DNA of 64,000 nt from Escherichia phage vB_EcoM_G17. Positions 31,626 to 56,107 of this stretch are shown piece after piece. The translations under genes were made by a program, and so were the position numbers. Within the stretch, counting starts at the first letter, position 1; each line of letters starts with the position of its first letter. Where the stretch lies: sequence record MK327931.1. One strand, given 5' to 3'. The notes beneath the pieces are model-generated. The model saw only the letters and a list, made by a program, of their open reading frames with translations, did not search any database and had not been told where the DNA came from.

Positions 31626-32164
31626 ATGTTCTCCTTAAAAAAATCCAAATACTCTTCATTGAAAGCATATGTATCATCTTTTATGTTATGCACCACATAA
31701 TCATAAAGAGCTATGAATGCAGGGATTATGATCTTACATGATTTATTATTGTATTTGTACTGCTCCAAATCAACGGTGTTCAATTTAGCAATAAGCATAG
31801 CAGCAAAGATATCTTCATGGCGGTGTACTGTGCTGTACTGAAAATACTCATCCTCTCCAATATCGGGATGATATAACGGTATAACCAAATTATTACGAAT
31901 TGACATTTTATATTTTTGTAATGCAGCTAAATGCATGAACCACAATCTATCTTCATGGAAAGATGGAAAAATAATTTTGTCTGTGCTAATAAAAATTTCT
32001 TCATTTCGATTATTTGTCACAAGAGGTGCATACATTTTAATTTTTGCAGATTTAATAATTAAATTAAAAATATAATGAATCTTATGAACTGCACTTGATG
32101 CATCTTCGTATGTACTTGGGATTATGAAACTCACTATATGTTCTCCTTTAAAATGAATACACAT
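31622..32164 (-). CDS. hypothetical protein, FamA paralog
   Basis: FamA core EDEYFQYSTVH; true start possibly GTG a few codons in. Confidence 0.6.
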   Translation of the reverse strand: MCIHFKGEHIVSFIIPSTYEDASSAVHKIHYIFNLIIKSAKIKMYAPLVTNNRNEEIFISTDKIIFPSFHEDRLWFMHLAALQKYKMSIRNNLVIPLYHPDIGEDEYFQYSTVHRHEDIFAAMLIAKLNTVDLEQYKYNNKSCKIIIPAFIALYDYVVHNIKDDTYAFNEEYLDFFKENI

Positions 32165-32191
32165 GATAACAGCTTTGGTCTTCTATGTCAA
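32163..32191 (-). promoter_or_regulatory. internal sigma70-like promoter
   Basis: -35 TTGACA 32186-32191, 17-bp spacer, -10 TATCAT 32163-32168. Confidence 0.4.
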
Positions 32192-32200
32192 TACCAAAAC

Positions 32201-32239
32201 GAAAAAAGCCCATATCTTACGATACAGGCGTTATGGGCA
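32201..32239 (-). terminator. intra-array rho-independent terminator
   Basis: Stem GCCCATA/TATGGGC about 32208-32238 with U-run on minus strand; overlaps stop of 32217..32723. Confidence 0.5.
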
Positions 32240-32723
32240 TGTTGATTTGAATTTCATTGTACAAATCATCAATATATAGACATGAAAAAAACACACTATC
32301 TTGTACTATATTGTTGTGATAAAGCATTTTAAATACTACATAAAAAAATAAATCAATATCATCGTGGACTAAATTCTGCTGGAACCACCACTCGTCTGTT
32401 AAATCTTGTGCATTAAAATCATCAGGAACTTCAATGAACGACATATCACAATCTTCTTTGTACTCAAACCACATGTCGTCATTCGGATAACGTTCATGCT
32501 TCTCTGGGTAACAATTGCTGGGATTAAATGTTAAAATATTAAACCCCGTAGAGCAACGTTCTTTATTTAAAAATGTATTATTCCATACCTGATATTTTTC
32601 ACCAACATCAAGCTCTTCTGTTACTGATTTTATTGCACATAATGTACTGTATATTGTTTCTATCTTGTGAACATATTTAAATGCAGCATCTAAGCTGAAC
32701 TCTAAATCATACATGTACTGCAT
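32217..32723 (-). CDS. hypothetical protein, FamA paralog
   Basis: FamA core DEWWFQQNLVH. Confidence 0.65.
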   Translation of the reverse strand: MQYMYDLEFSLDAAFKYVHKIETIYSTLCAIKSVTEELDVGEKYQVWNNTFLNKERCSTGFNILTFNPSNCYPEKHERYPNDDMWFEYKEDCDMSFIEVPDDFNAQDLTDEWWFQQNLVHDDIDLFFYVVFKMLYHNNIVQDSVFFSCLYIDDLYNEIQINMPITPVS

Positions 32724-33043
32724 AAAATTACCTCAACTAAAGCAAGAACTGTATTAAATTCAACTATACTTGTAATTCCTTGAAGGTACATGTACTTTGC
32801 TACTACATATTTCTGTACTAAATTATAATTATTAAATTCCTCAAAATTGTAATTTAGAACAAAATCTGTACTCAAAAATATCTTATGCATCTCTAATGCA
32901 CTTTGATAATACGCGTACAACTCACGGATATCAATACTGGTTAAATTATATTGTTCATATCTATGATACGGGATGGCTTCAATTTCAATACTATAAAACC
33001 ATTCTCTTAACTTATTAATATCAAATGTATTATTCAGCTTCAT
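32702..33043 (-). CDS. hypothetical protein
   Basis: ORF track; no family core. Confidence 0.5.
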   Translation of the reverse strand: MKLNNTFDINKLREWFYSIEIEAIPYHRYEQYNLTSIDIRELYAYYQSALEMHKIFLSTDFVLNYNFEEFNNYNLVQKYVVAKYMYLQGITSIVEFNTVLALVEVILCSTCMI

Positions 33044-33596
33044 AACTCAATACCTCCATTAAACACTCATACACACCATCAATCGCATAAGCACAAAAAT
33101 TGAAATTAATTTTGTGATTCTTGTGTAATGGACTATTGTGTACTGTACTCATTATGACATTATAAAATAACAAACGCACTGGTACAAGCATTGAACCTTG
33201 GAAAAATTCTTCCTCTGATTTATATGTATTGTACTCTATTGTTTTGTTCGTTTCTTTATCATATGTTACCATTACTAATGGGGAATTTTTATTATACCAT
33301 GCGTACTCTAAATCATTCTTTCCAATAACAGCACCAGGTGCGAAATCCAAAAGACCAATAACACTACGGGCATTTGGTATATCTGGTGTATTGAATCGTT
33401 TATCAAAATGACTCGTGCACGCAATATATGTATTGTACTTCGATGGAATAATACCAATACATTTGTGGAAATGACGCTTGTGATATTTCTGGGCATTATA
33501 TAAGGATGCAACAATACAAGCTAACTTTTGTCCCATAAGGATTGCATTAGCGTAGGTGTACTGAATTTCATTGCTGGTACGGTACTTCGAGGTCAT
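33030..33596 (-). CDS. hypothetical protein, FamA paralog
   Basis: FamA core EEEFFQGSMLV. Confidence 0.65.
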   Translation of the reverse strand: MTSKYRTSNEIQYTYANAILMGQKLACIVASLYNAQKYHKRHFHKCIGIIPSKYNTYIACTSHFDKRFNTPDIPNARSVIGLLDFAPGAVIGKNDLEYAWYNKNSPLVMVTYDKETNKTIEYNTYKSEEEFFQGSMLVPVRLLFYNVIMSTVHNSPLHKNHKINFNFCAYAIDGVYECLMEVLSYEAE

Positions 33597-33879
33597 AATA
33601 TTTCCTTTGCCATATCATGGGCTTAAAATCAATAACAGCTTTCTGTATCTTTTTTAATAATAAGACATCATAACCACCCGTGTCAATCACTAATTGCTGT
33701 TGGAACAATTCTTCATCGGATAATGTATTGAAATCTACAAAATAATCTGTAACTATCGAATCATTTAAATGTGCCATGTACCAACCTGAACTTCTTGAAT
33801 AAATCAAATTCCACCCATCGTCATCATCTTCTAATTCAACATAAATCATATCTGGGGTATACATCATTTTATACTTCAT
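33568..33879 (-). CDS. hypothetical protein, FamA paralog
   Basis: FamA core DEELFQQQLVI. Confidence 0.6.
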   Translation of the reverse strand: MKYKMMYTPDMIYVELEDDDDGWNLIYSRSSGWYMAHLNDSIVTDYFVDFNTLSDEELFQQQLVIDTGGYDVLLLKKIQKAVIDFKPMIWQRKYYDLEVPYQQ

Positions 33880-34417
33880 AACTATATCCTTGCATTAATA
33901 AATCATAAACTACATGGACTAAATTTAATTGAATATAAAATTTTAAACCTTTAATTAATGAATTCAAATGCATTGTACTGAATAACATTAGATACATCAT
34001 CTCATGCGGTTTTGTGATTAATGATTTTTGAAATACGCCAGCTTCATCATAAGGGTCTATGAACTGAAATTTGTCTTCATCATAATTTGTATTGGAATGC
34101 TGATATATAAAATAATCATCATTGGTATTGTACCACAAATATCCTTCGAATCCTGTACTAACATCTTTGGTCAATGGGGATGCTGATACTGGATTTGAAC
34201 TGATTAATGCACCTACATCAACAATCCCCGTTGTATCATATTCGATTTCAACATCAATATCAATGTATTTCCTTGCGATATCTGCGTTTATGGACAAATA
34301 TAAACTACCACCTGTCCTCTGACTCAGGATTCCATCTATATGCGATATAGGATGGTTGTTATTGAGGATAAGCATTATTGTACTTATCTTGTGTGCTAAT
34401 AACTCTATCTCATTCAT
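33869..34417 (-). CDS. hypothetical protein, FamA paralog
   Basis: FamA core EAGVFQKSLIT. Confidence 0.6.
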   Translation of the reverse strand: MNEIELLAHKISTIMLILNNNHPISHIDGILSQRTGGSLYLSINADIARKYIDIDVEIEYDTTGIVDVGALISSNPVSASPLTKDVSTGFEGYLWYNTNDDYFIYQHSNTNYDEDKFQFIDPYDEAGVFQKSLITKPHEMMYLMLFSTMHLNSLIKGLKFYIQLNLVHVVYDLLMQGYSYEV

Positions 34418-34617
34418 AATTTACCTATCGATGGATACCTAGGATTTGTAGGATGTAAAATCCTGTCCTGTACTGAAAGGTGCTCAAATGTAATTAAACT
34501 CAAATAATAATCGTAATTATCAATACCACCCTTCAAATGTATATTGTAATACATCTTAATACTATCTAATAATGAATCCTGTAATGCATTTAATGTTATC
34601 GTATTAATCTTTTGCAT
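34414..34617 (-). CDS. hypothetical small protein
   Basis: ORF track; ATGA coupling. Confidence 0.5.
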   Translation of the reverse strand: MQKINTITLNALQDSLLDSIKMYYNIHLKGGIDNYDYYLSLITFEHLSVQDRILHPTNPRYPSIGKL

Positions 34618-34765
34618 TAATGTTCTTCTCTTAAAAATCGTTTGATAGCATAATCTAAATAAAATTCATAACACATGCTATCTCTGTTCTTTATCCATAT
34701 TTTGTAATCGGATTTTATATTACGCAACAAATAATTTGTATTAATTGTGTAATAATCTAATCGCC

Positions 34766-35158
34766 CTAATCTTTCCATTTAATAGGATACTCCTTTCCTT
34801 GTACTATATATGACAAAATCCATCCGTAATGAATAGGATGATTTTTGTCTGAATCAGGAATAAAATATAAAGCTGTACTTGGATTATGACTGAATAAATC
34901 TTTATTGTCAAATGTAAAATGTGATAATATAATTTTCCTTGCACTTGGACGAATAACATTCTTAACACTGAACTCTGAACCTTTGTATTTCTCCGATAAT
35001 TCAAATAATGCATCTGTAATTAAATCACTGATCTCTTGGATTACAAAATTCTGATAAAATGCATTAATCTCTTTTAACTCTGTATACAATTCACTTCTGG
35101 TATTCAAAAGAAATATTACTTTTTTAAGATCCTGAACTATTTCTGGATTCATATTCAT
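34766..35158 (-). CDS. hypothetical protein
   Basis: ORF track. Confidence 0.55.
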   Translation of the reverse strand: MNMNPEIVQDLKKVIFLLNTRSELYTELKEINAFYQNFVIQEISDLITDALFELSEKYKGSEFSVKNVIRPSARKIILSHFTFDNKDLFSHNPSTALYFIPDSDKNHPIHYGWILSYIVQGKEYPIKWKD

Positions 35159-35390
35159 TTATCTCATTCTGTAACTTAAGCATCAAAATTTGCATATTAA
35201 TTTTTTGTAAAAGGTGCTTGATAAATTTCTGTGCCATTTCTTCTTGTTCTTTTGTACCAAGATAAAATAACAGATTAAATTCTGATAATCGCAAAGAAAA
35301 ATCTTCATCACCACCCTTTAAACAAAAATCCCTGTACTTTGTAGCGTACAAATATTGGTTTACCTTTTTATAATACCCTGTGTTTTGCAT
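35124..35390 (-). CDS. hypothetical small protein, FamB paralog
   Basis: FamB core YLGTKEQEEM. Confidence 0.6.
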   Translation of the reverse strand: MQNTGYYKKVNQYLYATKYRDFCLKGGDEDFSLRLSEFNLLFYLGTKEQEEMAQKFIKHLLQKINMQILMLKLQNEINEYESRNSSGS

Positions 35391-35578
35391 ACTATCTCCG
35401 TTCGCAACGAATTTATATAATAATGAACAAATTGTTCTTGTGAACGTGTTCCAAGAAAAATAAACATATCAAACTCTGTTGTTTTTAAATTCAATGCATC
35501 TTTTGTAAAATTCCTGTTGAATTCCCTGTACTTTTGGGTCTTCCATTCTTGATTAATTGTCTTGTATATCGATTTCAA
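35360..35578 (-). CDS. hypothetical small protein, FamB paralog
   Basis: FamB core FLGTRSQEQF. Confidence 0.6.
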   Translation of the reverse strand: MKSIYKTINQEWKTQKYREFNRNFTKDALNLKTTEFDMFIFLGTRSQEQFVHYYINSLRTEIVCKTQGIIKR

Positions 35579-35879
35579 TGATTCTCCCTGATGTACCTTG
35601 TATTAGCTTATCATACATATCGAGCATCACTTTTTGAATACTAATTAGTACTGGCATCGTGCAAATATCAATGTCGTATACTAAGCTGTACTGGAATAAT
35701 TCATCTTCCTGCATTTGTACTAAATTAGGTAAAGGATAATTGTCTGCCTCTTCATCCTGGTACTTGAAATGCATAACACCATCCTTTTTGTACAAAAGAA
35801 TGTCAATATCACCTAACTCATCAGCATAACCAAAAATACATATACTCGATGTTTTTGCTATATTAAATTTCATCTCCAC
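35553..35879 (-). CDS. hypothetical protein, FamA paralog
   Basis: FamA core EDELFQYSLVY. Confidence 0.65.
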   Translation of the reverse strand: MEMKFNIAKTSSICIFGYADELGDIDILLYKKDGVMHFKYQDEEADNYPLPNLVQMQEDELFQYSLVYDIDICTMPVLISIQKVMLDMYDKLIQGTSGRIIEIDIQDN

Positions 35880-37986: not shown

Positions 37987-38192
37987 TTTCTCAGTACTGA
38001 TTCTTTAAGTTCATTGATGTAGCACTCTACATATTCTTCTTGTAGGTTTGTTCCGATATGTAACAGTACTCTTAAATCTGCTCTCAGTACTTCTTTGTCA
38101 TCTTCATCTATATCAGACAGTGTTATGTTTAAGAATTTACTTGAACTCTCTATAAGTAATATTACTGAATCACCTTTGCTTAAAATTTTCAT
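37971..38192 (-). CDS. hypothetical small protein, FamB paralog
   Basis: FamB core HIGTNLQEEY. Confidence 0.65.
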   Translation of the reverse strand: MKILSKGDSVILLIESSSKFLNITLSDIDEDDKEVLRADLRVLLHIGTNLQEEYVECYINELKESVLRKCKCK

Positions 38193-38400
38193 AATCTCTT
38201 TTTGCTTTCCTCGCCAAAAGGTACATATACGATTCTTCGTATTGTGCTTGGTAGTTTGTGTTTAAGAGTCGAAACAACTTCTGTTCTGCTAGAACTAGTT
38301 GCTTATCTTCATAACAACGGTAGCGTATCAACTTTTTGTATTCGATGTTGATTACATCCATTACTATAAGCCCATGTTCATCATCTGTCAAGTGTTTCAT
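38170..38400 (-). CDS. hypothetical small protein, FamB paralog
   Basis: FamB core LLNTNYQAQY. Confidence 0.65.
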   Translation of the reverse strand: MKHLTDDEHGLIVMDVINIEYKKLIRYRCYEDKQLVLAEQKLFRLLNTNYQAQYEESYMYLLARKAKRDYENFKQR

Positions 38401-38639
38401 GCATTTTTTCTTTTTCTTATATGTTTAGTTAAAAGGTATATTAGTTTTCTGATGTATTCTTCTTGATAGTTTGTTCCTAAGAGTGCAAGAAGTTTTGCTT
38501 CAACTAAAGCTAGTTGTCGTTCTTCGAATGTGTGTTCCAGTATGTACTTGGGGTTTGATTTTTTAGCGTAAGCACTATTAGTCTTCATTACAATCTTATG
38601 ATATTCATTAGCTGTTAGGATTTTTAAATACTTGATCAT
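38397..38639 (-). CDS. hypothetical small protein, FamB paralog
   Basis: FamB core LLGTNYQEEY. Confidence 0.65.
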   Translation of the reverse strand: MIKYLKILTANEYHKIVMKTNSAYAKKSNPKYILEHTFEERQLALVEAKLLALLGTNYQEEYIRKLIYLLTKHIRKRKNA

Positions 38640-38859
38640 GTATCTTTTCCTTTATAGAGAATTTAAGATATCGAAGCATACTTTCAATGTAATACTCTTG
38701 TCTGTCAGTGCCAAGAAAGTACATGAGTTGAATGTATAAAACTTCTGCACTCCTTTCCGCTGGAGACTTGTTTGTGTCGTTTGGAAGTTGATTTGTATGT
38801 TTTCTTGATTTAATTAGTCGTTCTTTTAACTCATCGTCTGTTAAGTATTTCATTTTCAT
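38608..38859 (-). CDS. hypothetical small protein, FamB paralog
   Basis: FamB core FLGTDRQEYY. Confidence 0.65.
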   Translation of the reverse strand: MKMKYLTDDELKERLIKSRKHTNQLPNDTNKSPAERSAEVLYIQLMYFLGTDRQEYYIESMLRYLKFSIKEKIHDQVFKNPNS

Positions 38860-39085
38860 TTACTTTTTCCTTAATAGTGATTTTAAGATATCTAATCATA
38901 CGTGCAACATATTCCTCTTGTCTATCAGTTCCCAGAAGATATGGTAGTGATTGGAATAATACTTCTGCACTCCTTTCTGCTGGGGTTTGGTTTAGGTCAA
39001 TTGGACGTTTATTGGTATATCTCTTGGCACGAACTAATCTCTCGACGTATTCATTATAGGTTAAGTATATCATTTCATTTTGCAT
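38831..39085 (-). CDS. hypothetical small protein, FamB paralog
   Basis: FamB core LLGTDRQEEY. Confidence 0.65.
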   Translation of the reverse strand: MQNEMIYLTYNEYVERLVRAKRYTNKRPIDLNQTPAERSAEVLFQSLPYLLGTDRQEEYVARMIRYLKITIKEKVNENEILNRR

Positions 39086-39305
39086 TTACTTTTTCCTTAA
39101 TACTCATTATAAGATGTTCAATCATATTTTGAACCATAAATTCTTGTTTATCAGTTCCAAGAACGTATGGTAGCTTCTGAAACAATACATTTGCAGATAC
39201 TTCAGATATTGATTGATTTGGAACGAACTTAAGAGTAATGTTTTTGGTTTTTAACATCTTCTCTTGAAATTCTTCATTCGTTAAGTATATCATTTCATTT
39301 TGCAT
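39075..39305 (-). CDS. hypothetical small protein, FamB paralog
   Basis: FamB core VLGTDKQEFM. Confidence 0.65.
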   Translation of the reverse strand: MQNEMIYLTNEEFQEKMLKTKNITLKFVPNQSISEVSANVLFQKLPYVLGTDKQEFMVQNMIEHLIMSIKEKVNAK

Positions 39306-39521
39306 TTACATTCTCTCATATATATTTTGGGTTAAAAGGTCAATCCAGATTTCCACATATCGTTGTTGGTGTTGCGTCCCTAACAGTACACCCAACTTAG
39401 CTTCACACTCTAATAACAATCTGGTTTTGTATGGTAGACTTTGGAATCCTATAGTAGCATCTAATTTGGTAATTGCATAGTTGATTCGGATGAATCTTTC
39501 TTGCAATGTGATGTTGTTCAT
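39306..39521 (-). CDS. hypothetical small protein, FamB paralog
   Basis: FamB core LLGTQHQQRY. Confidence 0.65.
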   Translation of the reverse strand: MNNITLQERFIRINYAITKLDATIGFQSLPYKTRLLLECEAKLGVLLGTQHQQRYVEIWIDLLTQNIYERM

Positions 39522-39808
39522 TTCTTAGTACACCTCAGTGGTTGGGTCATTTGATAAAAGTACAGCTTACCTTTGATTTCCAGTAGTAACTCCGCGATTA
39601 AGCGATTTACTTCTGTATCTTGATAGTTTGTTCCTAAGAATACACCCATCTTTAACTCACGCATCATAATCATTTTCTTACTGTGTTGAATTTCTGGGTT
39701 GTGATAGATTGTATTACGTTTGTGCGTAATTTTTGTCATACGCTCGGTATATTCATCTTTACTTAAATTGATCATTTGCATGTTCATCAACCTCACATTT
39801 ATTTTCAA
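39518..39808 (-). CDS. hypothetical small protein, FamB paralog
   Basis: FamB core FLGTNYQDTE. Confidence 0.65.
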   Translation of the reverse strand: MKINVRLMNMQMINLSKDEYTERMTKITHKRNTIYHNPEIQHSKKMIMMRELKMGVFLGTNYQDTEVNRLIAELLLEIKGKLYFYQMTQPLRCTKK

Positions 39809-39810
39809 TA

Positions 39811-40077
39811 CTATTCTTTAGTTTGTAGATATAGTTTTCTTCCAATGTATCTCTTAAGTGCGATTATGTATTCATCTACATAATACTCCTGATAGTTTGT
39901 TCCTATGAATGCACCCACCTTTAACTCAAGTTTCATAATCATCTTATTTCCGTGTTTAATGACTTCTCCGTGATGGATTTCATTAAGTCCAGGTGCAATT
40001 TTCACCAGGCGTTCTTTATATTTTGCTTGAGATAATTTAATCATTTTCATGTTAATTACCCTTACATTTATTTTCAA
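39811..40077 (-). CDS. hypothetical small protein, FamB paralog
   Basis: FamB core FIGTNYQEYY. Confidence 0.65.
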   Translation of the reverse strand: MKINVRVINMKMIKLSQAKYKERLVKIAPGLNEIHHGEVIKHGNKMIMKLELKVGAFIGTNYQEYYVDEYIIALKRYIGRKLYLQTKE

Positions 40078-40282
40078 TACTATTCATGAGTTCTATAAGA
40101 TAGTTTTCTACCTTACCTTCCTGATAGTTAGTCCCTAGGAAGTTGCACAACACGGCTTCTATGATTTTGATTTTCCTGATATCAGGCTTCAATCTTTTGT
40201 TATTGAATATTTGAATCCTTATATCTCTGGATGCATTTAAACGTTTTTGATATTCATGGTAAGTTAAATGAATCATTTTCAT
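40052..40282 (-). CDS. hypothetical small protein, FamB paralog
   Basis: FamB core FLGTNYQEGK. Confidence 0.65.
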   Translation of the reverse strand: MKMIHLTYHEYQKRLNASRDIRIQIFNNKRLKPDIRKIKIIEAVLCNFLGTNYQEGKVENYLIELMNSIENKCKGN

Positions 40283-40497
40283 TTACGTTTAACCTCTCGC
40301 TGGAGGGCATCAATTAACATCAGTACAGCATTCTCTTGATAGTTTGTTCCTAAGACTGAAAGCATCTTTATCTCATTTACTAAAATCAACTTCTTTGAGG
40401 GTTCAATAATGTGACTATCATAAACGGCCTTACGTGCTGGATAAGTTTTCGCCAGTATAACATAAAATTCGTCTTTACTTAAATTAATCATTTGCAT
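40279..40497 (-). CDS. hypothetical small protein, FamB paralog
   Basis: FamB core VLGTNYQENA. Confidence 0.65.
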   Translation of the reverse strand: MQMINLSKDEFYVILAKTYPARKAVYDSHIIEPSKKLILVNEIKMLSVLGTNYQENAVLMLIDALQREVKRK

Positions 40498-40706
40498 TTA
40501 CTTTTAACCTCTTTCTGTAGAGCGTCAATCCATAGATCTACATACATTTGTTGATAGTTTGTGCCTAAGAGTGCACCTACATAGAGTTCAGTTACTAGTG
40601 CGTGCTTAAGGTTAGCTTGGATGCTCTTATCGCTTGATATCATTCTCCTTCTGCTTCCACATGTTTTCAGGAGTCTGATGTATTCAAAGCCTTGTAAATT
40701 TCTCAT
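40488..40706 (-). CDS. hypothetical small protein, FamB paralog
   Basis: FamB core LLGTNYQQMY. Confidence 0.65.
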   Translation of the reverse strand: MRNLQGFEYIRLLKTCGSRRRMISSDKSIQANLKHALVTELYVGALLGTNYQQMYVDLWIDALQKEVKSKCK

Positions 40707-40918
40707 ATTTTGGATACCACCTTGTTACGTAAGGAACTTAATAATACGTCAGTGTAGATGTTTTGATAGTTTGTCCCTACGAATACACCCAACTTCATTT
40801 CAGCTATTATAACACATTTGTCCTCTTGTGCAATAGATTTGTTTAACACAATACTATACACTTTTGATTTGATAGTTTGTAACCTCCAATGATACTGATA
40901 CTCATTAAGGATTATCAT
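40703..40918 (-). CDS. hypothetical small protein, FamB paralog
   Basis: FamB core FVGTNYQNIY. Confidence 0.65.
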   Translation of the reverse strand: MIILNEYQYHWRLQTIKSKVYSIVLNKSIAQEDKCVIIAEMKLGVFVGTNYQNIYTDVLLSSLRNKVVSKI

Positions 40919-41165
40919 TCTCTTTCCTCCAGATTTCGGTTCTCATGTGTTGGCAGTGTGCATCAATATATTGCTCTATCGATCTGGCGATTGCTGTTTT
41001 ATCAGTGCCTGTCATCAGTACAAGCATCTCGGCCTCACAGTGAAGTAAACGCATGATATCATAGGGTAATATTTCAGATACCGTGTCATAGTGTTTCTGT
41101 GCCAGTGTCTGCAATAGTTTACAATACATTTTGTGATTTAGTCTTTGTCGCATTGTTTCTTCCAT
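40905..41165 (-). CDS. hypothetical small protein, divergent FamB paralog
   Basis: Variant core LMTGTDKTAI. Confidence 0.55.
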   Translation of the reverse strand: MEETMRQRLNHKMYCKLLQTLAQKHYDTVSEILPYDIMRLLHCEAEMLVLMTGTDKTAIARSIEQYIDAHCQHMRTEIWRKENDNP

Positions 41166-41410
41166 TCTCTTCTGGCTTGGCGGGTTTTATCTGATATTTC
41201 GTTTCTCAATGCAGAGATATATCGTAGAGTGAACAGTTCTTGATAGTTAGTCCCTATGAATTTATTAAGATATACATCAGCGTTGACGATATCAGCTTCA
41301 CGGGAATTATAAAGTTTATTGTTAGTGCGAAGGGTGTTTAGAAGAGAGAAGAGGGCAGTCTGATACTCAGTGCTTGATAAAGTTTTCATATTTTTCCACA
41401 ATTCGTTCAT
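41138..41410 (-). CDS. hypothetical small protein, FamB paralog
   Basis: FamB core FIGTNYQELF. Confidence 0.65.
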   Translation of the reverse strand: MNELWKNMKTLSSTEYQTALFSLLNTLRTNNKLYNSREADIVNADVYLNKFIGTNYQELFTLRYISALRNEISDKTRQARREWKKQCDKD

Positions 41411-41624
41411 TTAGTTTTATCTGTATAAGATCCATTAGTTGTTCAAGATAATCGGTACAATATTTCTCTTGATATTGGGTTCCCACAAAGTACAGCAACC
41501 ATAGCTCATGAACTTTAACTTTCATCTCGTTCCATGAAAGTGCATCGTCATCGTAGATTACTCTTGCTTCTGGGGTGAGCTTTCGAATTCTAAGTGAATA
41601 TTCATCGTCCGTCAAGTGTTTCAT
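41367..41624 (-). CDS. hypothetical small protein, FamB paralog
   Basis: FamB core FVGTQYQEKY. Confidence 0.65.
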   Translation of the reverse strand: MKHLTDDEYSLRIRKLTPEARVIYDDDALSWNEMKVKVHELWLLYFVGTQYQEKYCTDYLEQLMDLIQIKLNERIVEKYENFIKH

Positions 41625-41779
41625 TTACATTTATCCCTTATTAGATTTGTGAGTGCAACTATGTGTTCATGGATATAAAAATTTTGATGAGAAGTTCCAA
41701 GAAAGTACAGCATCCATCCCTCACTCTGCTCGACTTCTAGTTTAGTATCGAGTTGGTCAGATATGTTAATGAAAACCAT
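41621..41779 (-). CDS. hypothetical small protein, FamB paralog (52 aa)
   Basis: Below ORF-track cutoff; reading by eye gives MVFINISDQ...FLGTSHQNFY; fills gap in array with ATGA/TAATG coupling. Confidence 0.5.
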   Translation of the reverse strand: MVFINISDQLDTKLEVEQSEGWMLYFLGTSHQNFYIHEHIVALTNLIRDKCK

Positions 41780-42036
41780 TAGTTCTTTTCCTTTCTTTCT
41801 ATTTGTTTCATAAGAACATCGATATACTCACCCGCAAACCTATTCTGATACTGCGTCCCCATGAATTCCAACATCCATACTTCAGCAACCTTTTCTTCAA
41901 TTTCAGTCCATTGTAAGTACATCATAGTGAAGTAAATGGTGTTCTCTTTTTTTCTGGCACTCTTAGCACGGGCCTCGTATTCAAAGTTATTAATGATGTT
42001 CATTACATTTGTCCATAATGTAATTCTTGAGTGCAA
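41779..42036 (-). CDS. hypothetical small protein, FamB paralog
   Basis: FamB core FMGTQYQNRF. Confidence 0.65.
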   Translation of the reverse strand: MHSRITLWTNVMNIINNFEYEARAKSARKKENTIYFTMMYLQWTEIEEKVAEVWMLEFMGTQYQNRFAGEYIDVLMKQIERKEKN

Positions 42037-42217
42037 CTATGTGTGCAATAACATACTCTTCCTGGAAGTTCGTCCCCAGTACAGCCAACATGCGTACATC
42101 GGTGGTGTTTATCTTGTGTTCCAATCGAGTTAAACCTTTTATTTGTAAAAGGGTATCGTATTTGTTTAATGCATCAATGATAATTCTCATCTTCTCAATA
42201 TTACTTAAATGTTTCAT
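41990..42217 (-). CDS. hypothetical small protein, FamB paralog
   Basis: FamB core VLGTNFQEEY. Confidence 0.65.
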   Translation of the reverse strand: MKHLSNIEKMRIIIDALNKYDTLLQIKGLTRLEHKINTTDVRMLAVLGTNFQEEYVIAHIVALKNYIMDKCNEHH

Positions 42218-42426
42218 AGTTTACTCTTAATGTAGTTCTGAAGTTCAATTAAGTATTTCCCTACATAATACTCCTGAAAGTCTGTATCCAAAAATGCACC
42301 CAAAAGTAAATCCTTCTCCATTGCCCTTGATAAGTTAAGGTCTGCATTTGAAAGGTATATAAGTAATATTTCAGTCTGGACAGAATTAAAACGTTTCTTA
42401 TATTCTTCAGGTGTTAATATAATCAT
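42214..42426 (-). CDS. hypothetical small protein, FamB paralog
   Basis: FamB core FLDTDFQEYY. Confidence 0.65.
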   Translation of the reverse strand: MIILTPEEYKKRFNSVQTEILLIYLSNADLNLSRAMEKDLLLGAFLDTDFQEYYVGKYLIELQNYIKSKL

Positions 42427-42638
42427 AATTTGCTCCTGATGTATTTCTCAAGAGATGACAAATACTTTTCCTCATAATACTCCTGATAGTCTGTTCCCAA
42501 GAATGCACCCATAAGTATTTCATTTTCCAATACCTCGGCTAAGTTTAAATCAGACGTCTCTTCGTATATTATGAGGATTTCAAGTTGTCTGGCAGCGATG
42601 CGTTCAGTATATTGATATGAGTTTTCTATAATAATCAT
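42423..42638 (-). CDS. hypothetical small protein, FamB paralog
   Basis: FamB core FLGTDYQEYY. Confidence 0.65.
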   Translation of the reverse strand: MIIIENSYQYTERIAARQLEILIIYEETSDLNLAEVLENEILMGAFLGTDYQEYYEEKYLSSLEKYIRSKL

Positions 42639-42844
42639 ATTTTACTCTTAATATCTTCTATTAAAAATCGAATCCATTCTTCAACATAATCTTCCTGATG
42701 GTTTGTGTTCAGTACAGCCAACATGCGGATCTCTGCTCTTGCAACTTCAATTTCAGTTTTAGGCAGGTCTTTGCTGATATCCACCATTAAGTCCATGTAT
42801 TTCAAGATAAGACCGTATGATTGGGTTCGTGTTATAGTTTTCAT
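42635..42844 (-). CDS. hypothetical small protein, FamB paralog
   Basis: FamB core VLNTNHQEDY. Confidence 0.65.
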   Translation of the reverse strand: MKTITRTQSYGLILKYMDLMVDISKDLPKTEIEVARAEIRMLAVLNTNHQEDYVEEWIRFLIEDIKSKI

Positions 42845-43041
42845 TGTTTCCTCGTGGACAATATTTTATTTTTCAATGTATCCATATATTGCCACACCCA
42901 TCTACCCTGATAGTTTGTTCCCAATGTAATCAAAAGGTATAACTCCATTCGTTCTACGTGTGTGTCTGTGTTGTAAATCTTTACGTAGTTTTTACGTAAC
43001 AGTGATTGATATTCTTCTTTATTTAAAATACGCATTTTCAT
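42841..43041 (-). CDS. hypothetical small protein, FamB paralog
   Basis: FamB core TLGTNYQGRW. Confidence 0.65.
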   Translation of the reverse strand: MKMRILNKEEYQSLLRKNYVKIYNTDTHVERMELYLLITLGTNYQGRWVWQYMDTLKNKILSTRKQ

Positions 43042-43265
43042 AGTTTACTCGTTATATCTTCAATTAAATACCAAATCCAATCGTTGACATACCTTTCCTG
43101 AAAGTTAGTTCCAATGAATAGTGCCATAATTAATTCACGCTTATAGGCAATACCACGGTCATGGGACTTATACATTATCATAGCCATGTTATTGATAAGT
43201 CTTTCGTGGTGCTGTTCTTTAGTTAAAATACGCATAGGGACTCCCTTAAAATTAATATCAATCAT
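43038..43265 (-). CDS. hypothetical small protein, FamB paralog (first gene of array)
   Basis: FamB core FIGTNFQERY; AAGGGAG SD before internal ATG (MRILTKEQ). Confidence 0.6.
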   Translation of the reverse strand: MIDINFKGVPMRILTKEQHHERLINNMAMIMYKSHDRGIAYKRELIMALFIGTNFQERYVNDWIWYLIEDITSKL

Positions 43266-43484
43266 ATTTTATACGATTCATATAAAAAGTCAATAACATT
43301 TTATTCGTAATACCCCTTTATCGAAGTCGCTAAGGTTACCCGCCCTTTAGCCCCCTACGCATTTTGCCATAGTCCAATCCCTTTTATTTCAAAAAAGTCA
43401 AGGGATTACCTATGCATTTTTTTAACGCATAATTTTAAAAACGCCTTGACTTTTTTCTGAATCAGTACTAGATCCCTTTACGCA
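43266..43484 (-). promoter_or_regulatory. non-coding control region upstream of the paralog super-array
   Basis: About 220 bp without ORF; TTGACT -35-like boxes, inverted repeat AAAAAAGTCAAGG/CCTTGACTTTTTT, repeated ACGCAT-containing motifs. Confidence 0.45.
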
Positions 43485-43694
43485 TTAATCCTTCGTTACG
43501 CTAACGATTATCTGTGTATCCCCGTAGTCCTGCCATACTTCCACGCCATCGGTCGCCCTGGTTAGTCGTGCTGTCATCTGCTTAATGGTCTTAGGCTTTA
43601 GTGGAACCTGTTGCAGTACTGTACGCATAGCATCATTGACGTTATCATGTACGCCTGCAATAGTACCTAGAACGCTGTATACTGTATAGAACAT
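43485..43694 (-). CDS. hypothetical protein
   Basis: ORF track; AGGAGGG SD; preceded by hairpin AGGCCGC/GCGGCCT at 43721-43740. Confidence 0.6.
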   Translation of the reverse strand: MFYTVYSVLGTIAGVHDNVNDAMRTVLQQVPLKPKTIKQMTARLTRATDGVEVWQDYGDTQIIVSVTKD

Positions 43695-43762
43695 ATGTAT
43701 GCCCTCCTGATATAGTTAAGGCCGCTACAAGGCGGCCTATGATGTTTGGTGATGTGTAACGC

Positions 43763-44164
43763 TTACAGTCCTAAGATAGTGCGTGCTTCGTTACGTTCCG
43801 TACACAGCTGCATGATGTGAGCAAGTAAGTCCTTGCTAATGTATCCGGTGTTCATAGCTTCACGAATAGATACATCATACGCACCGAACCCCGTGCGAAC
43901 GATACGCACATCATTCAGGTTAGTATTATAGATACCGCCGAGATCAACGGCTTCGAATACTACATCAACAGAATATTCATTGTTGCCATCGTGGAAGTTT
44001 TCCAGTGCAATAGTATTGGATACCGCCCAACGTTTGCAGTTTCCAATGATGCGGCACTGTTCCGGTTGGATAGTACCATTACTTACAGCGTACTCCAGTG
44101 CATCTTTACCAAAAGTCCGAGCCAGTACTAAAACGTCAGCGAAGGAATTGATTGAGAAGGTCAT
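43763..44164 (-). CDS. hypothetical protein
   Basis: ORF track 43763..44197 trimmed: first ATG lies inside leader hairpin; second ATG has AAGGAG SD. Confidence 0.6.
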   Translation of the reverse strand: MTFSINSFADVLVLARTFGKDALEYAVSNGTIQPEQCRIIGNCKRWAVSNTIALENFHDGNNEYSVDVVFEAVDLGGIYNTNLNDVRIVRTGFGAYDVSIREAMNTGYISKDLLAHIMQLCTERNEARTILGL

Positions 44165-44183
44165 GATAAAACTCCTTAATTTA

Positions 44184-44246
44184 GGAGGGAGAACCATTTC
44201 CCCCTCTCTATGTAAAACATTATACTTGATTCTAAGTACTATGCAA
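44184..44246 (-). promoter_or_regulatory. sigma70-like promoter + leader hairpin cassette (PeSL-like)
   Basis: -35 TTGCAT 44241-44246, 16-bp spacer, -10 TATAAT 44219-44224, GC hairpin about 44184-44208. Confidence 0.6.
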
Positions 44247-44253
44247 GTACTTT

Positions 44254-44586
44254 TTACATTTTAATACCTGGATTCAGGTAGCGGTGAGATCCATATTCTG
44301 GATCGGTTTCGGTCCAGTACTGTAAATCGATAGTACCTTTCGCGTTAATCTTGTCTACCAGCTTATTCATCTTAGTGTATACTACGTCAGCATCGATGCG
44401 TTTAAAGCCAGTAGCTTTAGTGAAGTAGTAGTGATTTGCTTCACTATCATTAAGGATATACCGAGCACCGTTTGCAGTCTGTGCGATAATGATTGAGTAT
44501 TCTACTTCCCGATCCAGACCGTCGATGAATACAGATGAAACATTGGTACGGATGAAAGCTTTAACGATAGCGATTGAAGTACTCAT
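44254..44586 (-). CDS. hypothetical protein
   Basis: ORF track; AGGAGA SD. Confidence 0.65.
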   Translation of the reverse strand: MSTSIAIVKAFIRTNVSSVFIDGLDREVEYSIIIAQTANGARYILNDSEANHYYFTKATGFKRIDADVVYTKMNKLVDKINAKGTIDLQYWTETDPEYGSHRYLNPGIKM

Positions 44587-44606
44587 TTTGAATCTCCTAA
44601 CTTTGT

Positions 44607-44668
44607 GGGCCGTCGCACCATTGCCGCCCTACGAGATACATTATTGCAGTACTGATATACTTTGTCAA
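44607..44668 (-). promoter_or_regulatory. sigma70-like promoter + leader hairpin cassette
   Basis: -35 TTGACA 44663-44668, weak -10 (AATAAT/CAATAA), GC-rich hairpin about 44607-44629. Confidence 0.5.
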
Positions 44669-44737
44669 TACTTTTTTTATTAATAGTTTTCACCCCACCA
44701 GCAGATAGTTACTCACCGTTATTAACTATATATTTTA

Positions 44738-44830
44738 GATACACTCCTGCACCCAGTGGGCTAGTTTTTGTCTATGCGTATATAATAGCAAAGGGACTGA
44801 CCGGAGTCAATCCCTTTTTTTATTCTTTTT
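44738..44830. repeat. repeated intergenic element copy A with bidirectional terminator
   Basis: Motif GATACACTCCTGCACCCAGTGGGCTAG 44738-44764, then hairpin GGGACTGACCGGAGTCAATCCC 44793-44814 and T-run; recurs near 47485-47580, 50758-50840, 54042-54130. Confidence 0.6.
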
Positions 44831-44832
44831 TG

Positions 44833-45033
44833 TTAGATGATTCTCCAATCTTCTACGATCATGGTAAGATAACGGACCATCGATTCAAGTGATTCGAATT
44901 CCCGATAGTCTGCCGCTCCACCAGCGGTACAAGTACAGCCGATTAAACCATTTTGTAATTCCTTAATCTGTACATCGATAAGGTTGGCTTTAGCTTCTTT
45001 CAGTACTTCAACCAGGGCGATAGCGATAGACAT
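44833..45033 (-). CDS. hypothetical protein
   Basis: ORF track; GGAG SD; own promoter cassette. Confidence 0.55.
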   Translation of the reverse strand: MSIAIALVEVLKEAKANLIDVQIKELQNGLIGCTCTAGGAADYREFESLESMVRYLTMIVEDWRII

Positions 45034-45056
45034 AATGTTTTACTCCAAACTATTGA

Positions 45057-45116
45057 CGGGAGAACTATTCCCCCGCTCTATGTAAAACATTATACATTAC
45101 TGGTTAGTACTGTCAA
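45057..45116 (-). promoter_or_regulatory. sigma70-like promoter + leader hairpin cassette
   Basis: -35 TTGACA 45111-45116, 16-bp spacer, -10 TATAAT 45089-45094, hairpin CGGGGGAATAGTTCTCCCG 45057-45075. Confidence 0.6.
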
Positions 45117-45122
45117 ATAGTT

Positions 45123-45380
45123 TTATGAAATATCTTCGATGTAGTCGGCCCATTTCATTTTTTCAGTACTGTCAATGGCTACCGGATTATTTGGATCAAA
45201 CCATTCACCATTCCCGCAATACATACCCACGGCAACGGTTTTATATCCATCCTGTGCAGTACTCCACGACATAGCACGATAGATATGGCCTTTAACTGGT
45301 TGCAATACTGGTAATGTTTTATGGTCTTCTACGTAGGCCATAGCTTGAGGATTTACCCGATATTGTGTGAACTGTTCCAT
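45123..45380 (-). CDS. hypothetical protein
   Basis: ORF track. Confidence 0.65.
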   Translation of the reverse strand: MEQFTQYRVNPQAMAYVEDHKTLPVLQPVKGHIYRAMSWSTAQDGYKTVAVGMYCGNGEWFDPNNPVAIDSTEKMKWADYIEDIS

Positions 45381-45408
45381 TATGTTTCCCCTTGTAGTTA
45401 GTAAAGTT

Positions 45409-45437
45409 ATTACATCAGTACTATCAAGCTATGTCAA
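45409..45437 (-). promoter_or_regulatory. sigma70-like promoter (no leader hairpin)
   Basis: -35 TTGACA 45432-45437, 17-bp spacer, -10 TGTAAT 45409-45414. Confidence 0.5.
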
Positions 45438-45456
45438 TAGTACTGAAATAAAACTT

Positions 45457-45681
45457 TTAGATTAGATTATTGATGCCGTTGATGGTAGACTCGCTTTCTT
45501 CTTTCTCCCATTGGCGGTAGTACTTCCATGCTTCATGATATGTGGCGATTAGTTCATCTTTTTGATCCTGAGTACATGCCAGTACTGAATCACGGTGAGC
45601 GGTTTTATAGATAGAATCGAATGATTTCTTCTCTTCTGCCAGGTTAGCTACTTCCCGCATCAGTTCATCAAAGTTAGCCAT
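45457..45681 (-). CDS. hypothetical protein
   Basis: ORF track; AAGGAG SD. Confidence 0.65.
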   Translation of the reverse strand: MANFDELMREVANLAEEKKSFDSIYKTAHRDSVLACTQDQKDELIATYHEAWKYYRQWEKEESESTINGINNLI

Positions 45682-45699
45682 TTTATTACTCCTTTTAGT

Positions 45700-45756
45700 G
45701 GGGGAGGATATCTCCCCCTATGCAAAACATTATACTTTGTTTTAGTTATTATGCAA
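45700..45756 (-). promoter_or_regulatory. sigma70-like promoter + leader hairpin cassette
   Basis: -35 TTGCAT 45751-45756 (overlaps stop of 45749..46012), 16-bp spacer, -10 TATAAT 45729-45734, hairpin GGGGGAG..CTCCCCC 45700-45718. Confidence 0.6.
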
Positions 45757-46012
45757 GTACTTTTTTCATATAAAGATTATATTCTACACCGCCGTAACCT
45801 TCTACGATGATATGTTTTGCGTTATCACGTTTGCACATAGTGAAACCGTTGTTGATGTGTTCTGCATTTTCCAGGGCGACATCACCGATAGCGGCACATA
45901 CGGCACTAATAACAGTATTCCGCAAAGTACTGGTATCATTAGCGGTCATAGTAGTTTGCAGTACTACGTTGTCGTATACGTGTGCATTGATAGTGATTTC
46001 GATAGTGTTCAT
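45749..46012 (-). CDS. hypothetical protein
   Basis: ORF track; GGAG SD. Confidence 0.65.
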   Translation of the reverse strand: MNTIEITINAHVYDNVVLQTTMTANDTSTLRNTVISAVCAAIGDVALENAEHINNGFTMCKRDNAKHIIVEGYGGVEYNLYMKKVLA

Positions 46013-46030
46013 GGTGTATCTCCTGGACTG

Positions 46031-46091
46031 GCGGGAGAACTATTCCCCCGCTCTATGTAAAACATTATACGTTAATCTAACTACAATGCAA
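46031..46091 (-). promoter_or_regulatory. sigma70-like promoter + leader hairpin cassette
   Basis: -35 TTGCAT 46086-46091, 16-bp spacer, -10 TATAAT 46064-46069, hairpin 46031-46051. Confidence 0.6.
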
Positions 46092-46098
46092 GTACTTT

Positions 46099-46290
46099 TT
46101 AAATTTTATTTCCGATATAGTCCGGTCTATTCTTTTCGGTCATACGCTTTGCTAATGTTTGCATATGGCTTATTGCGTTTAATGTGTCTTCCTCCAGGGA
46201 TGAATCAACATAATCAGGATCATTCTTCACCTTGCAATGATTATGATAGCGTAGTACTGCCAGTACTTTTTTAACTTCTTCTACTGTCAT
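46099..46290 (-). CDS. hypothetical protein
   Basis: ORF track; ATGA-coupled to 46287..46559. Confidence 0.6.
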   Translation of the reverse strand: MTVEEVKKVLAVLRYHNHCKVKNDPDYVDSSLEEDTLNAISHMQTLAKRMTEKNRPDYIGNKI

Positions 46291-46559
46291 AATAAGTACC
46301 CCACTTCGTTAGCTTTCAGGTTAGTATCAATCATCAGTGGATTTTTGTAGTTCACAAAACGATTAGTTTTCTCGATAGCGAATCCCATATAATCCAGCTT
46401 ACTAACAGTACATTCATTCTTAAAAACTTCTTTCGCTGCATCGATGGCTGATTGCATGGATAACCGACCATCTAAATTAATGTTTCCAAATGATCCACCA
46501 GCAGAAGTAGGATTACCGTTCATATCTTTAATGATCATAGTAGCGGAGTAGCTGGACAT
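46287..46559 (-). CDS. hypothetical protein
   Basis: ORF track; AAGGA SD. Confidence 0.65.
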   Translation of the reverse strand: MSSYSATMIIKDMNGNPTSAGGSFGNINLDGRLSMQSAIDAAKEVFKNECTVSKLDYMGFAIEKTNRFVNYKNPLMIDTNLKANEVGYLL

Positions 46560-46581
46560 AATTTTGTTTCCTTTTAGTATC

Positions 46582-46640
46582 GGGGAGAACTATTCTCCCC
46601 TTGATGTAAACTATTATACAGTACTGATATACTTTGTCAA
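46582..46640 (-). promoter_or_regulatory. sigma70-like promoter + leader hairpin cassette
   Basis: -35 TTGACA 46635-46640, 16-bp spacer containing CAGTACTG, -10 TATAAT 46613-46618, hairpin GGGGAGAA-TAG-TTCTCCCC 46582-46600. Confidence 0.65.
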
Positions 46641-46646
46641 ATACTT

Positions 46647-47054
46647 TTATTCGCCCATATAGATTAAGTTATCATCGCCTACATAGGGATCGCAAACGTT
46701 GATTTCTTCGCAGTACTTCGTGAATACATCGCCATAGTGACCTAAACCACGATCCCAAAAACCAGTTCCGTGACCTTCGCGGGTAAGGAACAGATCATGA
46801 CCAGCTTGCTCATAACCGTAATCAATAAACATACCGCGAACTACTTCCAGATCATTACCGTGTTTCTCAATGAAGCGAGAACATGCAATCACCGCCGCTT
46901 GACGTGCTTCATCAGATAACTCATAATCTTCCAGGTAATCGCCGTTATCATTATGTACAGTACTGAATTGCATAGCTTCAATGTAAGCTACAACCATTGC
47001 AGCATGATTTTTATCGTTAGTGATGTTCCGAGCGAGATTAGTAGTAGTAGACAT
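46647..47054 (-). CDS. hypothetical protein
   Basis: ORF track; AAGGAA SD. Confidence 0.7.
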   Translation of the reverse strand: MSTTTNLARNITNDKNHAAMVVAYIEAMQFSTVHNDNGDYLEDYELSDEARQAAVIACSRFIEKHGNDLEVVRGMFIDYGYEQAGHDLFLTREGHGTGFWDRGLGHYGDVFTKYCEEINVCDPYVGDDNLIYMGE

Positions 47055-47075
47055 GATTTTATTCCTTATTGTATT

Positions 47076-47134
47076 GGGGAGAACTATTCTCCCCTTGATG
47101 TAAACTATTATACAGTACTGATATACTTTGTCAA
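47076..47134 (-). promoter_or_regulatory. sigma70-like promoter + leader hairpin cassette
   Basis: -35 TTGACA 47129-47134, 16-bp spacer, -10 TATAAT 47107-47112, hairpin 47076-47094; stop of upstream gene 4 bp from -35. Confidence 0.65.
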
Positions 47135-47137
47135 TAC

Positions 47138-54266: not shown

Positions 54267-54356
54267 TTAAATCACCATAAAGAATAGATAGGTTACTAAC
54301 AACGCCGCGATCAATGCACCGACCAGGGCCGAACTATAGTAAGCTAATGTTTTCAT
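54267..54356 (-). CDS. hypothetical hydrophobic micro-protein (29 aa)
   Basis: MKTLAYYSSALVGALIAALLVTYLFFMVI; coupled between two small genes. Confidence 0.3.
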   Translation of the reverse strand: MKTLAYYSSALVGALIAALLVTYLFFMVI

Positions 54357-54505
54357 TTTTTAGCCTGAAAATAATGTTTAATTTGTGCGGCGGTCAATGC
54401 ACAATTACGCAGGAAGTTTTCTGTATAACTGCGGCGAGTACTGAAAGAGAATTGACCTTTGCCGTTGCCGATAGTAACATCAAACCGAGCGTTGTATTGT
54501 TTCAT
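54353..54505 (-). CDS. hypothetical small protein (50 aa)
   Basis: Below ORF-track cutoff; ATG with AAGGAG SD directly after promoter cassette. Confidence 0.45.
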   Translation of the reverse strand: MKQYNARFDVTIGNGKGQFSFSTRRSYTENFLRNCALTAAQIKHYFQAKK

Positions 54506-54521
54506 TTTGATTCTCCTTGTA

Positions 54522-54586
54522 TCAGGGGAGAACCATTTCCCCCCCCTCTATGTAAACAATTATACAGTACTGGAAACTAATTGCAA
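54522..54586 (-). promoter_or_regulatory. sigma70-like promoter + leader hairpin cassette
   Basis: -35 TTGCAA 54581-54586, 16-bp spacer, -10 TATAAT 54559-54564, hairpin GGGGAGAACCATTTCCCCC about 54522-54546. Confidence 0.6.
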
Positions 54587-54589
54587 GTA

Positions 54590-54736
54590 CTATTTTTTAG
54601 ATTTACGCAAACTTTCTACCATCTCAGGAGTAAGGCCCGGCGGGTAGGAAACCACTTCATCCACAAAACGCAAAGGGAATACCCCAGCGAAAGGTGAACG
54701 TGCTTTCTTGTTAGTACTCTTTTTTGATGCTTTCAT
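54590..54736 (-). CDS. hypothetical small basic protein (48 aa)
   Basis: Below ORF-track cutoff; ATG with AAGGAA SD. Confidence 0.45.
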   Translation of the reverse strand: MKASKKSTNKKARSPFAGVFPLRFVDEVVSYPPGLTPEMVESLRKSKK

Positions 54737-54755
54737 TTCATATTCCTTAATTAGT

Positions 54756-55015: not shown

Positions 55016-55020
55016 ATTAA

Positions 55021-56088: not shown

Positions 56089-56107
56089 TAGTACTGTGAT
56101 AATATTT

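Follow-up and report, generated by a model that had tools for sequence, protein, structure and literature searches.

The 219-bp gap at 43266-43484 very probably represents the seam between a 20,668-bp direct terminal repeat (DTR, 43333-64000) and unique DNA, with a putative end signal in the tail of the repeat and a predicted sigma-70-type promoter beyond it. As judged from the deposited ends of related genomes, the main fact missed by the initial annotation is that this gap contains a physical genome end. The terminal repeat itself has already been published, and the new part is the fine anatomy of the seam: in the literature searched, only lengths and restriction patterns were given, and no description of the junction sequence, the 152-bp tail, the hairpin or the adjacent promoter was found. 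The elements of the seam and of the promoter are otherwise ordinary.

Position of the gap and surrounding genes

The 4-kb stretch around the gap is 100% identical to Escherichia phage Sharanji (OR545507.1) and 90-99% identical to approximately 30 other Asteriusvirus jumbo phages, including PBECO4, 121Q, phAPEC6 and fEgEco12. By this identity, the window (the whole 64-kb stretch of DNA that was analysed, to which all positions refer unless otherwise stated) is Asteriusvirus jumbo phage DNA. The minus strand carries all credible genes of the window, and the gap is therefore read from high to low coordinates, from the end of the repeat genes to an array of 65-90-aa paralogs that runs without gaps from gp051 down to approximately 36175 (Table 1). 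Pfam and PHROG searches with gp051, gp052, gp053 and an insert found in PBECO4 returned families of unknown function only, and a search of IMG/VR with gp052 gave 121Q as the sole match. The G + C content is approximately 0.37-0.40 above 44 kb versus 0.30-0.35 below 40 kb. A replication origin at the gap was also considered and was rejected, as the cumulative GC skew showed no inflection.

Table 1. Features at the seam between the terminal repeat and unique DNA, with positions in the window
Feature	Position	Strand	Description
gp052	43485..43694	-	69 aa, PHROG 17833, function unknown; last gene of the direct terminal repeat; stop codon 43485-43487
DTR non-coding tail	43333..43484	.	152 bp, behind gp052; from record ends and DTR length
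Nested inverted repeat/hairpin	43388..43461	-	outer arms 43391-43403 and 43444-43456, extended to ~16 bp; U/T run at the end
Terminus-proximal block	43333..43382	-	conserved islands AGGGATTGGACTATGG (43382-43367), ATGCGT.GGGGG, and GGGTAACCT ending the repeat
Junction motif GGGTAACCT/TAGCGA (stroke, repeat end)	43327..43341	-	last DTR base 43333; unique DNA from 43332
Sigma-70-type promoter (predicted)	43266..43293	-	TTGACT-16 nt-TAAAAT; 10/12 matches; 40-67 bp beyond the repeat end; expected start ~43259
SD site AAGGGAG and true start ATG of the first small paralog	43233..43247	-	SD 43247-43241; ATG 43235-43233
First small-paralog array gene (gp051)	43038..43235 (annotated 43038-43265)	-	65 aa, PHROG 4148, function unknown

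The right end of the packaged genome

The gap consists of two parts, joined at 43332/43333. To locate this joint, the record ends were fetched for every relative long enough to hold both copies of the repeat. The gp052 region was found twice in vB_Ec-M-J, E9.1, CRJP21, fEgEco12, BF17 and WPEC5, with one copy at the record end, and in BLAST comparisons all six of these records, which were deposited independently, terminate exactly at 43333, with their right ends in the first five and with the left end in WPEC5. The terminus in these records lies 152 nt past the gp052 stop codon. In addition, the 'Direct Terminal Repeats' annotation of vB_Ec-M-J (1-21,525) stops inside the orthologous gap. The repeat closes with base 43333, and the packaged DNA consequently has its right physical end there. 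The records of vB_Ec-M-J, fEgEco12 and E9.1 open with the reverse complement of the last bases of the window, and 64000 is therefore the other (left) physical end. Compared in this way, the records show 43333 and 64000 to be the physical ends of the genome.

The length of the repeat leads to the same position. The interval 43333-64000 measures 20,668 bp and is equal, to the base, to the DTR length determined for Sharanji by PhageTerm (PMC11895373), while the lengths published or annotated for fEgEco12 and vB_Ec-M-J are 20,993 bp and 21,525 bp, respectively. The position of the terminus rests on PhageTerm and assembly calls of other laboratories together with one restriction-digest confirmation in a relative, fEgEco12, for which PhageTerm and the digests agree on the termini (PMC13070987). 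The composition also changes here: apart from the shift in G + C content noted above, AGTACT sites have a density of approximately 6 per kb in the repeat but are absent from the following 5 kb.

Two records depart from this pattern. The record of BAU.Micro_ELP-22 terminates at 43461, not at 43333. Position 43461 is exactly the outermost base of the hairpin described below, and this end may therefore be an assembly artefact arising from the inverted repeat. For UE-S1, a repeat of 8.3 kb was published, an assignment that the authors of the fEgEco12 study consider to be wrong (PMC13070987). At the opposite end, the leftmost 1.1 kb or so of the genome (62900-64000) contains no minus-strand ORF of at least 50 aa; it is dense in AGTACT and has one consensus promoter near 63615.

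These results call for a correction of the map: 43333 should be taken for an end of the genome and no longer for a position within an operator, and the repeat boundary of Sharanji-type phages is thereby fixed to one base.

Structure and conservation of the repeat tail

Read on the coding strand, the non-coding tail of the repeat opens with TAATGCGTAAAGGGATCTAGTACTGA, followed by the nested hairpin (43461-43388) and then by AGGGATTGGACTATGG-CAAA-ATGCGTAGGGGG-CTAAAGGGC-GGGTAACCT, the final T of which is 43333. The tail was compared in an alignment of 13 phages, to which A4, EJP2 and PBECO4 were added later. Only two of the 16 sequences searched lack the motif GGGTAACCT/TAGCG. Variants of the junction consist of one extra T in vB_Ec-M-J (GGGTAACCTT/TAGCG), GGGTAATTGCT/TAGC in A4 and GTAACCCT/TAGCG in EJP2. 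The islands AGGGATTGGACTATG and ATGCGT.GGGGG are kept in the divergent phages Turkey5 and JNE01 despite the replacement of their surroundings. Divergent members retain the junction motif and its flanking islands but not the inverted-repeat sequence. The tail, measured from the gp052 stop codon to the genome end, is also nearly constant in length. Seven phages were folded, and in six of them it measures 148-157 nt; in Turkey5 it reaches 228 nt through a 61-nt tandem duplication.

Taken together, the terminus-proximal block may serve as the cis-site at which the packaging machinery makes a sequence-specific cut for the right end on concatemers. The hairpin may assist in the formation of this end, or it may terminate the last early operon, or it may be a scar of rearrangement. 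The sole motif common to the two junctions of the repeat is the ubiquitous AGTACTGAT, and therefore no single recognition sequence is evident. A scan of IMG/VR with the 14-mer junction motif gave 53 matches, among which 121Q was the sole recognisable relative. The junction motif and the constant-length non-coding tail are candidate cis-signals for sequence-specific ends in jumbo phages with long terminal repeats.

Several other candidates in this region were rejected. TAAAGGG repeats flank the cut, with three of the seven copies of the window located here, but they are not kept in relatives and were dismissed as a functional motif. A small ORF of 7 codons after AGGGATTGGACT-ATG is conserved neither in length nor in frame (approximately 37 codons in Turkey5, as read from the sequence). 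No match at the gathering level was obtained with Rfam in the whole window; the best one, bglG-cis-reg (RF03530), scored 28.4 bits against a threshold of 80 and was discarded.

The inverted repeat and its possible roles

An inverted repeat with arms about 45 bp apart had been described in the gap. The repeat is indeed perfect, with 13-nt arms AAAAAAGTCAAGG (43391-43403) and CCTTGACTTTTTT (43444-43456) that are 100% complementary, but they are separated by 40 nt. Between them, ATGCGTT and AATGCAT (AUGCGUU and AAUGCAU in the RNA), which correspond to two of the ACGCAT repeats of the initial annotation, form the 9-bp stem of an inner hairpin at 43410-43432. The minus-strand RNA of 43388-43461 folds with -23.6 kcal/mol (z = -4.5) and ends in UUUUUU. 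The inverted repeat is kept in most Asteriusviruses, while Turkey5 and JNE01 have other sequence instead. The TH47 group retains the outer arms, but its inner hairpin is disrupted by changes that are not compensated. A4 carries another palindrome instead, AATTGAGTCAA-N7-TTGACTCAATT, and EJP2 has a hairpin containing AGTACT.

One possible, although doubtful, function of this structure is that of a factor-independent terminator that closes the gp053-gp052 unit and insulates the array, leaving it to its own weaker promoter, a reading that is compatible with a seam at this position. The stem of approximately 16 bp followed by the U run, together with the folding z-score given above, is consistent with termination, and the stretch from the last cassette promoter (44253-44198) to the array contains no other terminator; the GGCCGC hairpin in this stretch, at 43739-43719, is not followed by a U run. 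The different hairpin of EJP2 also occupies the same place and is followed by a U-rich tail. However, a scan of 43266-43484 for intrinsic terminators listed none. Such terminators are defined by a G + C-rich stem, a 3-8-nt loop and a U run, of which only the U run is found here; the 40-nt loop and the AT-rich stem with three G-C pairs are non-canonical. Moreover, A's follow the A4 hairpin on the sense strand, no hairpin of this kind is present in JNE01, and the uncompensated disruption in the TH47 group also argues against a terminator.

The repeats of the gap might instead be non-functional traces of duplication and recombination. The 10-mer TTGACTTTTT occurs three times in the 64 kb, with all copies in the gap (two direct and one inverted), whereas shuffled sequences are expected to contain 0.34 copies and none of 100 shuffles reached three. 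In addition, 43400-43422 is a 23-nt inverted copy of the gene start at 43225-43247. The triplet, the inverted repeat and this copy could all be scars at a rearrangement hot spot, an explanation that we regard as rather unlikely. In its favor, one arm with its flank (AAGGGATTACCTATGCATTTTTTTAAC, plus strand) is similar, when inverted, to the SD site and ATG of the real gene start (AAGGGAGTCCCTATGCGTATTTTAAC), and relatives are rearranged at this place: apart from the tandem duplication of Turkey5, an insertion of 486 bp that includes an extra ORF is found in PBECO4 and BF17, and 75 bp are deleted in the SD phages. The arms are nevertheless nearly unchanged in 11 of the 13 aligned phages, which are 90-100% identical, a divergence at which this conservation is weak evidence either way.

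Judged from these differences among genomes, the seam of repeat and unique DNA is a rearrangement hot spot. In PBECO4 (773-1138 in L009) and, with the same insert, in BF17, the junction promoter is directly followed by an additional ORF of 121 aa, which has no match in Pfam or PHROG and replaces 43239-43248. In the Salmonella SD phages, the deletion takes out the junction promoter.

The similarity between 43400-43422 and 43225-43247 also allows a long-range pairing in the RNA, which, in transcripts that read through from upstream, would mask the ribosome-binding site of the first array gene and so leave only promoter-proximal transcripts to be translated. Such an arrangement would resemble the control of the T4 lysozyme gene. 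The two 23-nt arms are 83% complementary, and the whole 271-nt leader folds better than its shuffles (z = -4.6). However, UB, E9.1 and TH47 have T in place of G within the Shine-Dalgarno arm, a change that is uncompensated, no covariation was seen, and the upstream arm is absent from Turkey5, JNE01 and A4, which makes this pairing extremely improbable as a means of control.

The predicted junction promoter and expression of the array

On the unique side of the seam, 43332-43266 reads TAGCGACTTCGATAAAGGGG...TTATTGACTTTTTATATGAATCGTATAAAAT. Sigma-70-type hexamers with a 16-nt spacer (16-18 nt being the range applied) are located here on the same strand as the array, 30 nt before the ATG at 43235. 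The flanks of the promoter diverge among the 15 relatives compared, but 13 of them share the -35 hexamer, a spacer of 16 nt (15 nt in CMSTMSU) and a -10 hexamer of the form TAnnnT; the -10 hexamer appears as TAAAAT, TATTAT, TATAAT or TAATAT, at an unchanged distance from the junction, and two relatives have TTGATT at -35. The exceptions are A4, where another promoter, of the extended -10 type, stands at this position, and SD15, in which the promoter is deleted. In this AT-rich window, sigma-70-like matches are found at the level of shuffled sequences (24 versus 22.8), and the promoter call therefore rests on position and conservation, not on statistics. The conservation described above supports a sigma-70-like promoter at the head of the array, at 43293-43266.

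The first gene of the array had been placed with its start at 43265, as in the Sharanji record. The ATG at 43265 directly adjoins the -10 hexamer and is not conserved, reading AGG in UB, E9.1 and TH47, whereas the start at 43235 is ATG or GTG behind the SD sequence AAGGGAG, and the records of several relatives annotate the 65-aa form. On this comparison, Sharanji gp051 is annotated 10 codons too long, and its real start is 43235. Host RNA polymerase with sigma-70 would begin transcription at approximately 43259, giving a short leader with the SD sequence ahead of this ATG, and the resulting transcript would cover the gap-free first 7 kb or so of the array.

The gap had also been proposed to switch the whole array of about 39 kb. 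Other promoter-like gaps occur within the array, at 36173-36145 and at 32191-32163, the latter behind a terminator at 32229-32208, and the array also holds several classical terminators; the gap therefore cannot control all 39 kb. The predicted promoter probably feeds the first 7 kb or so of the array, not its full length. The link between promoter and array would be present only beside the left copy of the repeat, or across the repeat in concatemeric or circularised DNA, since nothing would follow the right copy. As an alternative to its own promoter, the array may be transcribed by read-through from the repeat; no Asteriusvirus transcriptome was found in the literature. In the unique DNA, the array comes first after the repeat and is served by a predicted host-type promoter of its own, and both its position and this promoter bear on early-gene annotation and on phage engineering.

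In the initial annotation, the whole gap was read as one regulatory region with possibly delayed action; on this view, a phage protein acting on ACGCAT repeats and on the inverted repeat would switch the array on late. Most of the motifs on which this reading was built are present. As had been noted, the gap lacks ORFs (none of at least 20 aa lies inside 43266-43484, and a 36-aa plus-strand ORF only clips the edge), and TTGACT boxes are found at 43401-43396 and 43293-43288 on the minus strand and at 43446-43451 on the plus strand. The three ACGCAT repeats are likewise confirmed; their plus-strand positions are 43357, 43425 and 43480, and ATGCAT occurs at 43412. The reverse complement, ATGCGT, has 22 minus-strand copies in 64 kb, so that approximately 0.08 would be expected in 219 bp against the three seen, an enrichment noted post hoc, and the copies at 43480 and 43357 are kept in the 13 aligned phages. 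The absence of the standard early cassette also holds, as the gap contains neither the AGTACTG spacer element nor the GGGGAG...CTCCCC leader hairpin.

However, the inverted repeat and the ACGCAT repeats lie in the tail of the terminal repeat, on the other side of the genome-end junction (43332/43333) from the promoter, and the gap is thus not one control region. The TH47 group lacks the middle ACGCAT. Of the motif said to recur at remote sites, an exact 12-mer, CGTTAGAATGCG, does occur on the minus strand at 52665, 56905 and 62519, but the gap has no copy even with two mismatches, and its link to these sites is therefore a shared hexamer only. The promoter is similar to host sigma-70 promoters, like those of the early genes, and has no middle- or late-type motif, and nothing indicates the delayed regulation that had been suggested. 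Together with the promoters and terminators inside the array, these observations make a single late-acting control region very improbable, and nothing supports an ACGCAT-binding regulator.

Early cassettes and other repeats in the window

Most gaps between 44 and 62 kb contain a standard cassette, which consists of TTGACA-N9-AGTACTG-TATAAT or AAAGTACTTGCA-N17-TATAAT, then ACATCA, a GGGGAG...CTCCCC 5'-UTR hairpin, an SD sequence and ATG. Across 44198-62000, the cassette promoters fall into two classes, TTGACA-N9-AGTACTGTATAAT and AAAAAGTACTTGCA-N17-TATAAT, with AGTACTG in or beside the spacer, and the 5'-UTR hairpin reads GGGGAGAA-N4-TTCTCCCC.

The three CGTTAGAATGCG sites (52665-52676, 56905-56916 and 62519-62530, minus strand) are located in three long non-coding gaps of the DTR. 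They share only about 28 nt, CGTTAGAATGCG-N4-AG-N2-CGTTT, and a related copy is found in coding DNA at approximately 55131. Another non-coding repeat, of approximately 100 nt, occurs at about 44729-44832, 47476-47582, 50757-50851 and 54040-54140. It opens with a hairpin, AAAGGGATTGACTCCGGTCAGTCCCTTT, that overlaps a TTGACT-17-TATTAT promoter and is followed by a conserved GGGTGCGGrAGTGTATCT; its first 11 nt resemble the conserved AAAAGGGATTGGACT block beside the genome end. These repeats could be small RNA genes.

AGTACT, usually as cAGTACTg, is the commonest hexamer of the window, with 251 sites versus approximately 21 expected, and it occurs in all three codon phases as well as in non-coding DNA. 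It is also enriched about 5-fold (88 versus 17) in a 50-kb replication and structural segment, positions 150001-200000 of the Sharanji record (L029). No mention of this enrichment was found in the literature. The excess suggests selection at the DNA level for a palindromic site. Two islands, 28000-35600 and 38100-43460, are free of AGTACT, while their surroundings have 2-6 sites per kb; the second of them corresponds to the array of small paralogs that immediately follows the terminal repeat. From the lack of the site, these arrays seem to differ in origin or in the constraints acting on them.

Comparison with known systems

The repeat described here is the same element as the published Asteriusvirus DTRs, and the ends located in the window coincide with the deposited ends of relatives. 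With regard to the promoter, Rak2-like jumbo phages such as CBB have RpoD-like early promoters before runs of short hypothetical genes, some of them on the terminal repeat (PMC5259590). The seam is similar in having host-type -35 and -10 hexamers ahead of short hypothetical genes. Compared to the cassettes of its own repeat, however, the junction promoter is devoid of the AGTACTG spacer element and the 5'-UTR hairpin, and its hexamers are weaker (10/12).

The processing of concatemer junctions in T7 offers a second comparison, as T7 also has sequence-specific ends and a repeat that needs to be duplicated. The terminal repeat of T7 is approximately 160 bp, whereas that described here is 20,668 bp, and we take the Asteriusvirus terminase to be of the T4-like type. 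A passage in PMC4281155, citing Chung and Hinkle 1990, reports a hairpin intermediate near the T7 repeat, which would be a precedent for a hairpin close to a genome end. This resemblance may be followed as a lead only.

By analogy of layout, the nearest functional analogue of the seam is the junction between the left terminal repeat and unique DNA in T5. There, a conserved, repeat-rich non-coding stretch, repeat region 3, holds the injection stop signal (doi 10.1101/866236). In both systems, a long terminal repeat carries early genes, and a non-coding stretch of direct and inverted repeats straddles the junction and is conserved better than the neighboring genes. Unlike the T5 region of 1.66 kb, that of the present phage spans 0.2 kb and is about eight times shorter, and the sequence of its inverted repeat is not universal in the genus. 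The injection stop of T5 is defined by paired DnaA boxes in inverted repeats at the inner end of the repeat, and a search for DnaA boxes (TTWTNCACA) gave no match in 41401-53801.

A T5-like injection stop, in which the repeat would enter first and its hairpin-bearing tail would halt transfer until the repeat genes are expressed, is thus a distant prospect. The layout is analogous, with a long repeat full of small genes behind consensus host promoters and a repeat-rich non-coding stretch at the junction, as in repeat region 3 of T5 (doi 10.1101/866236); against it stand the lack of DnaA boxes in or near the region, the much smaller size of the stretch and the members without the inverted repeat. 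For Asteriusvirus, two-step injection is, to our knowledge, not described. With little confidence, we suggest that the repeat could be a first-entering pre-early module like that of T5 and that its tail of approximately 155 bp, with the hairpin and GGGTAACCT/TAGCG, might pause either DNA entry or early transcription, thereby withholding the array and the rest of the genome. If this were true, a pausing tail would rescue the idea of delayed regulation by a different mechanism and would extend two-step genome delivery, as in T5, to T4-related jumbo phages.
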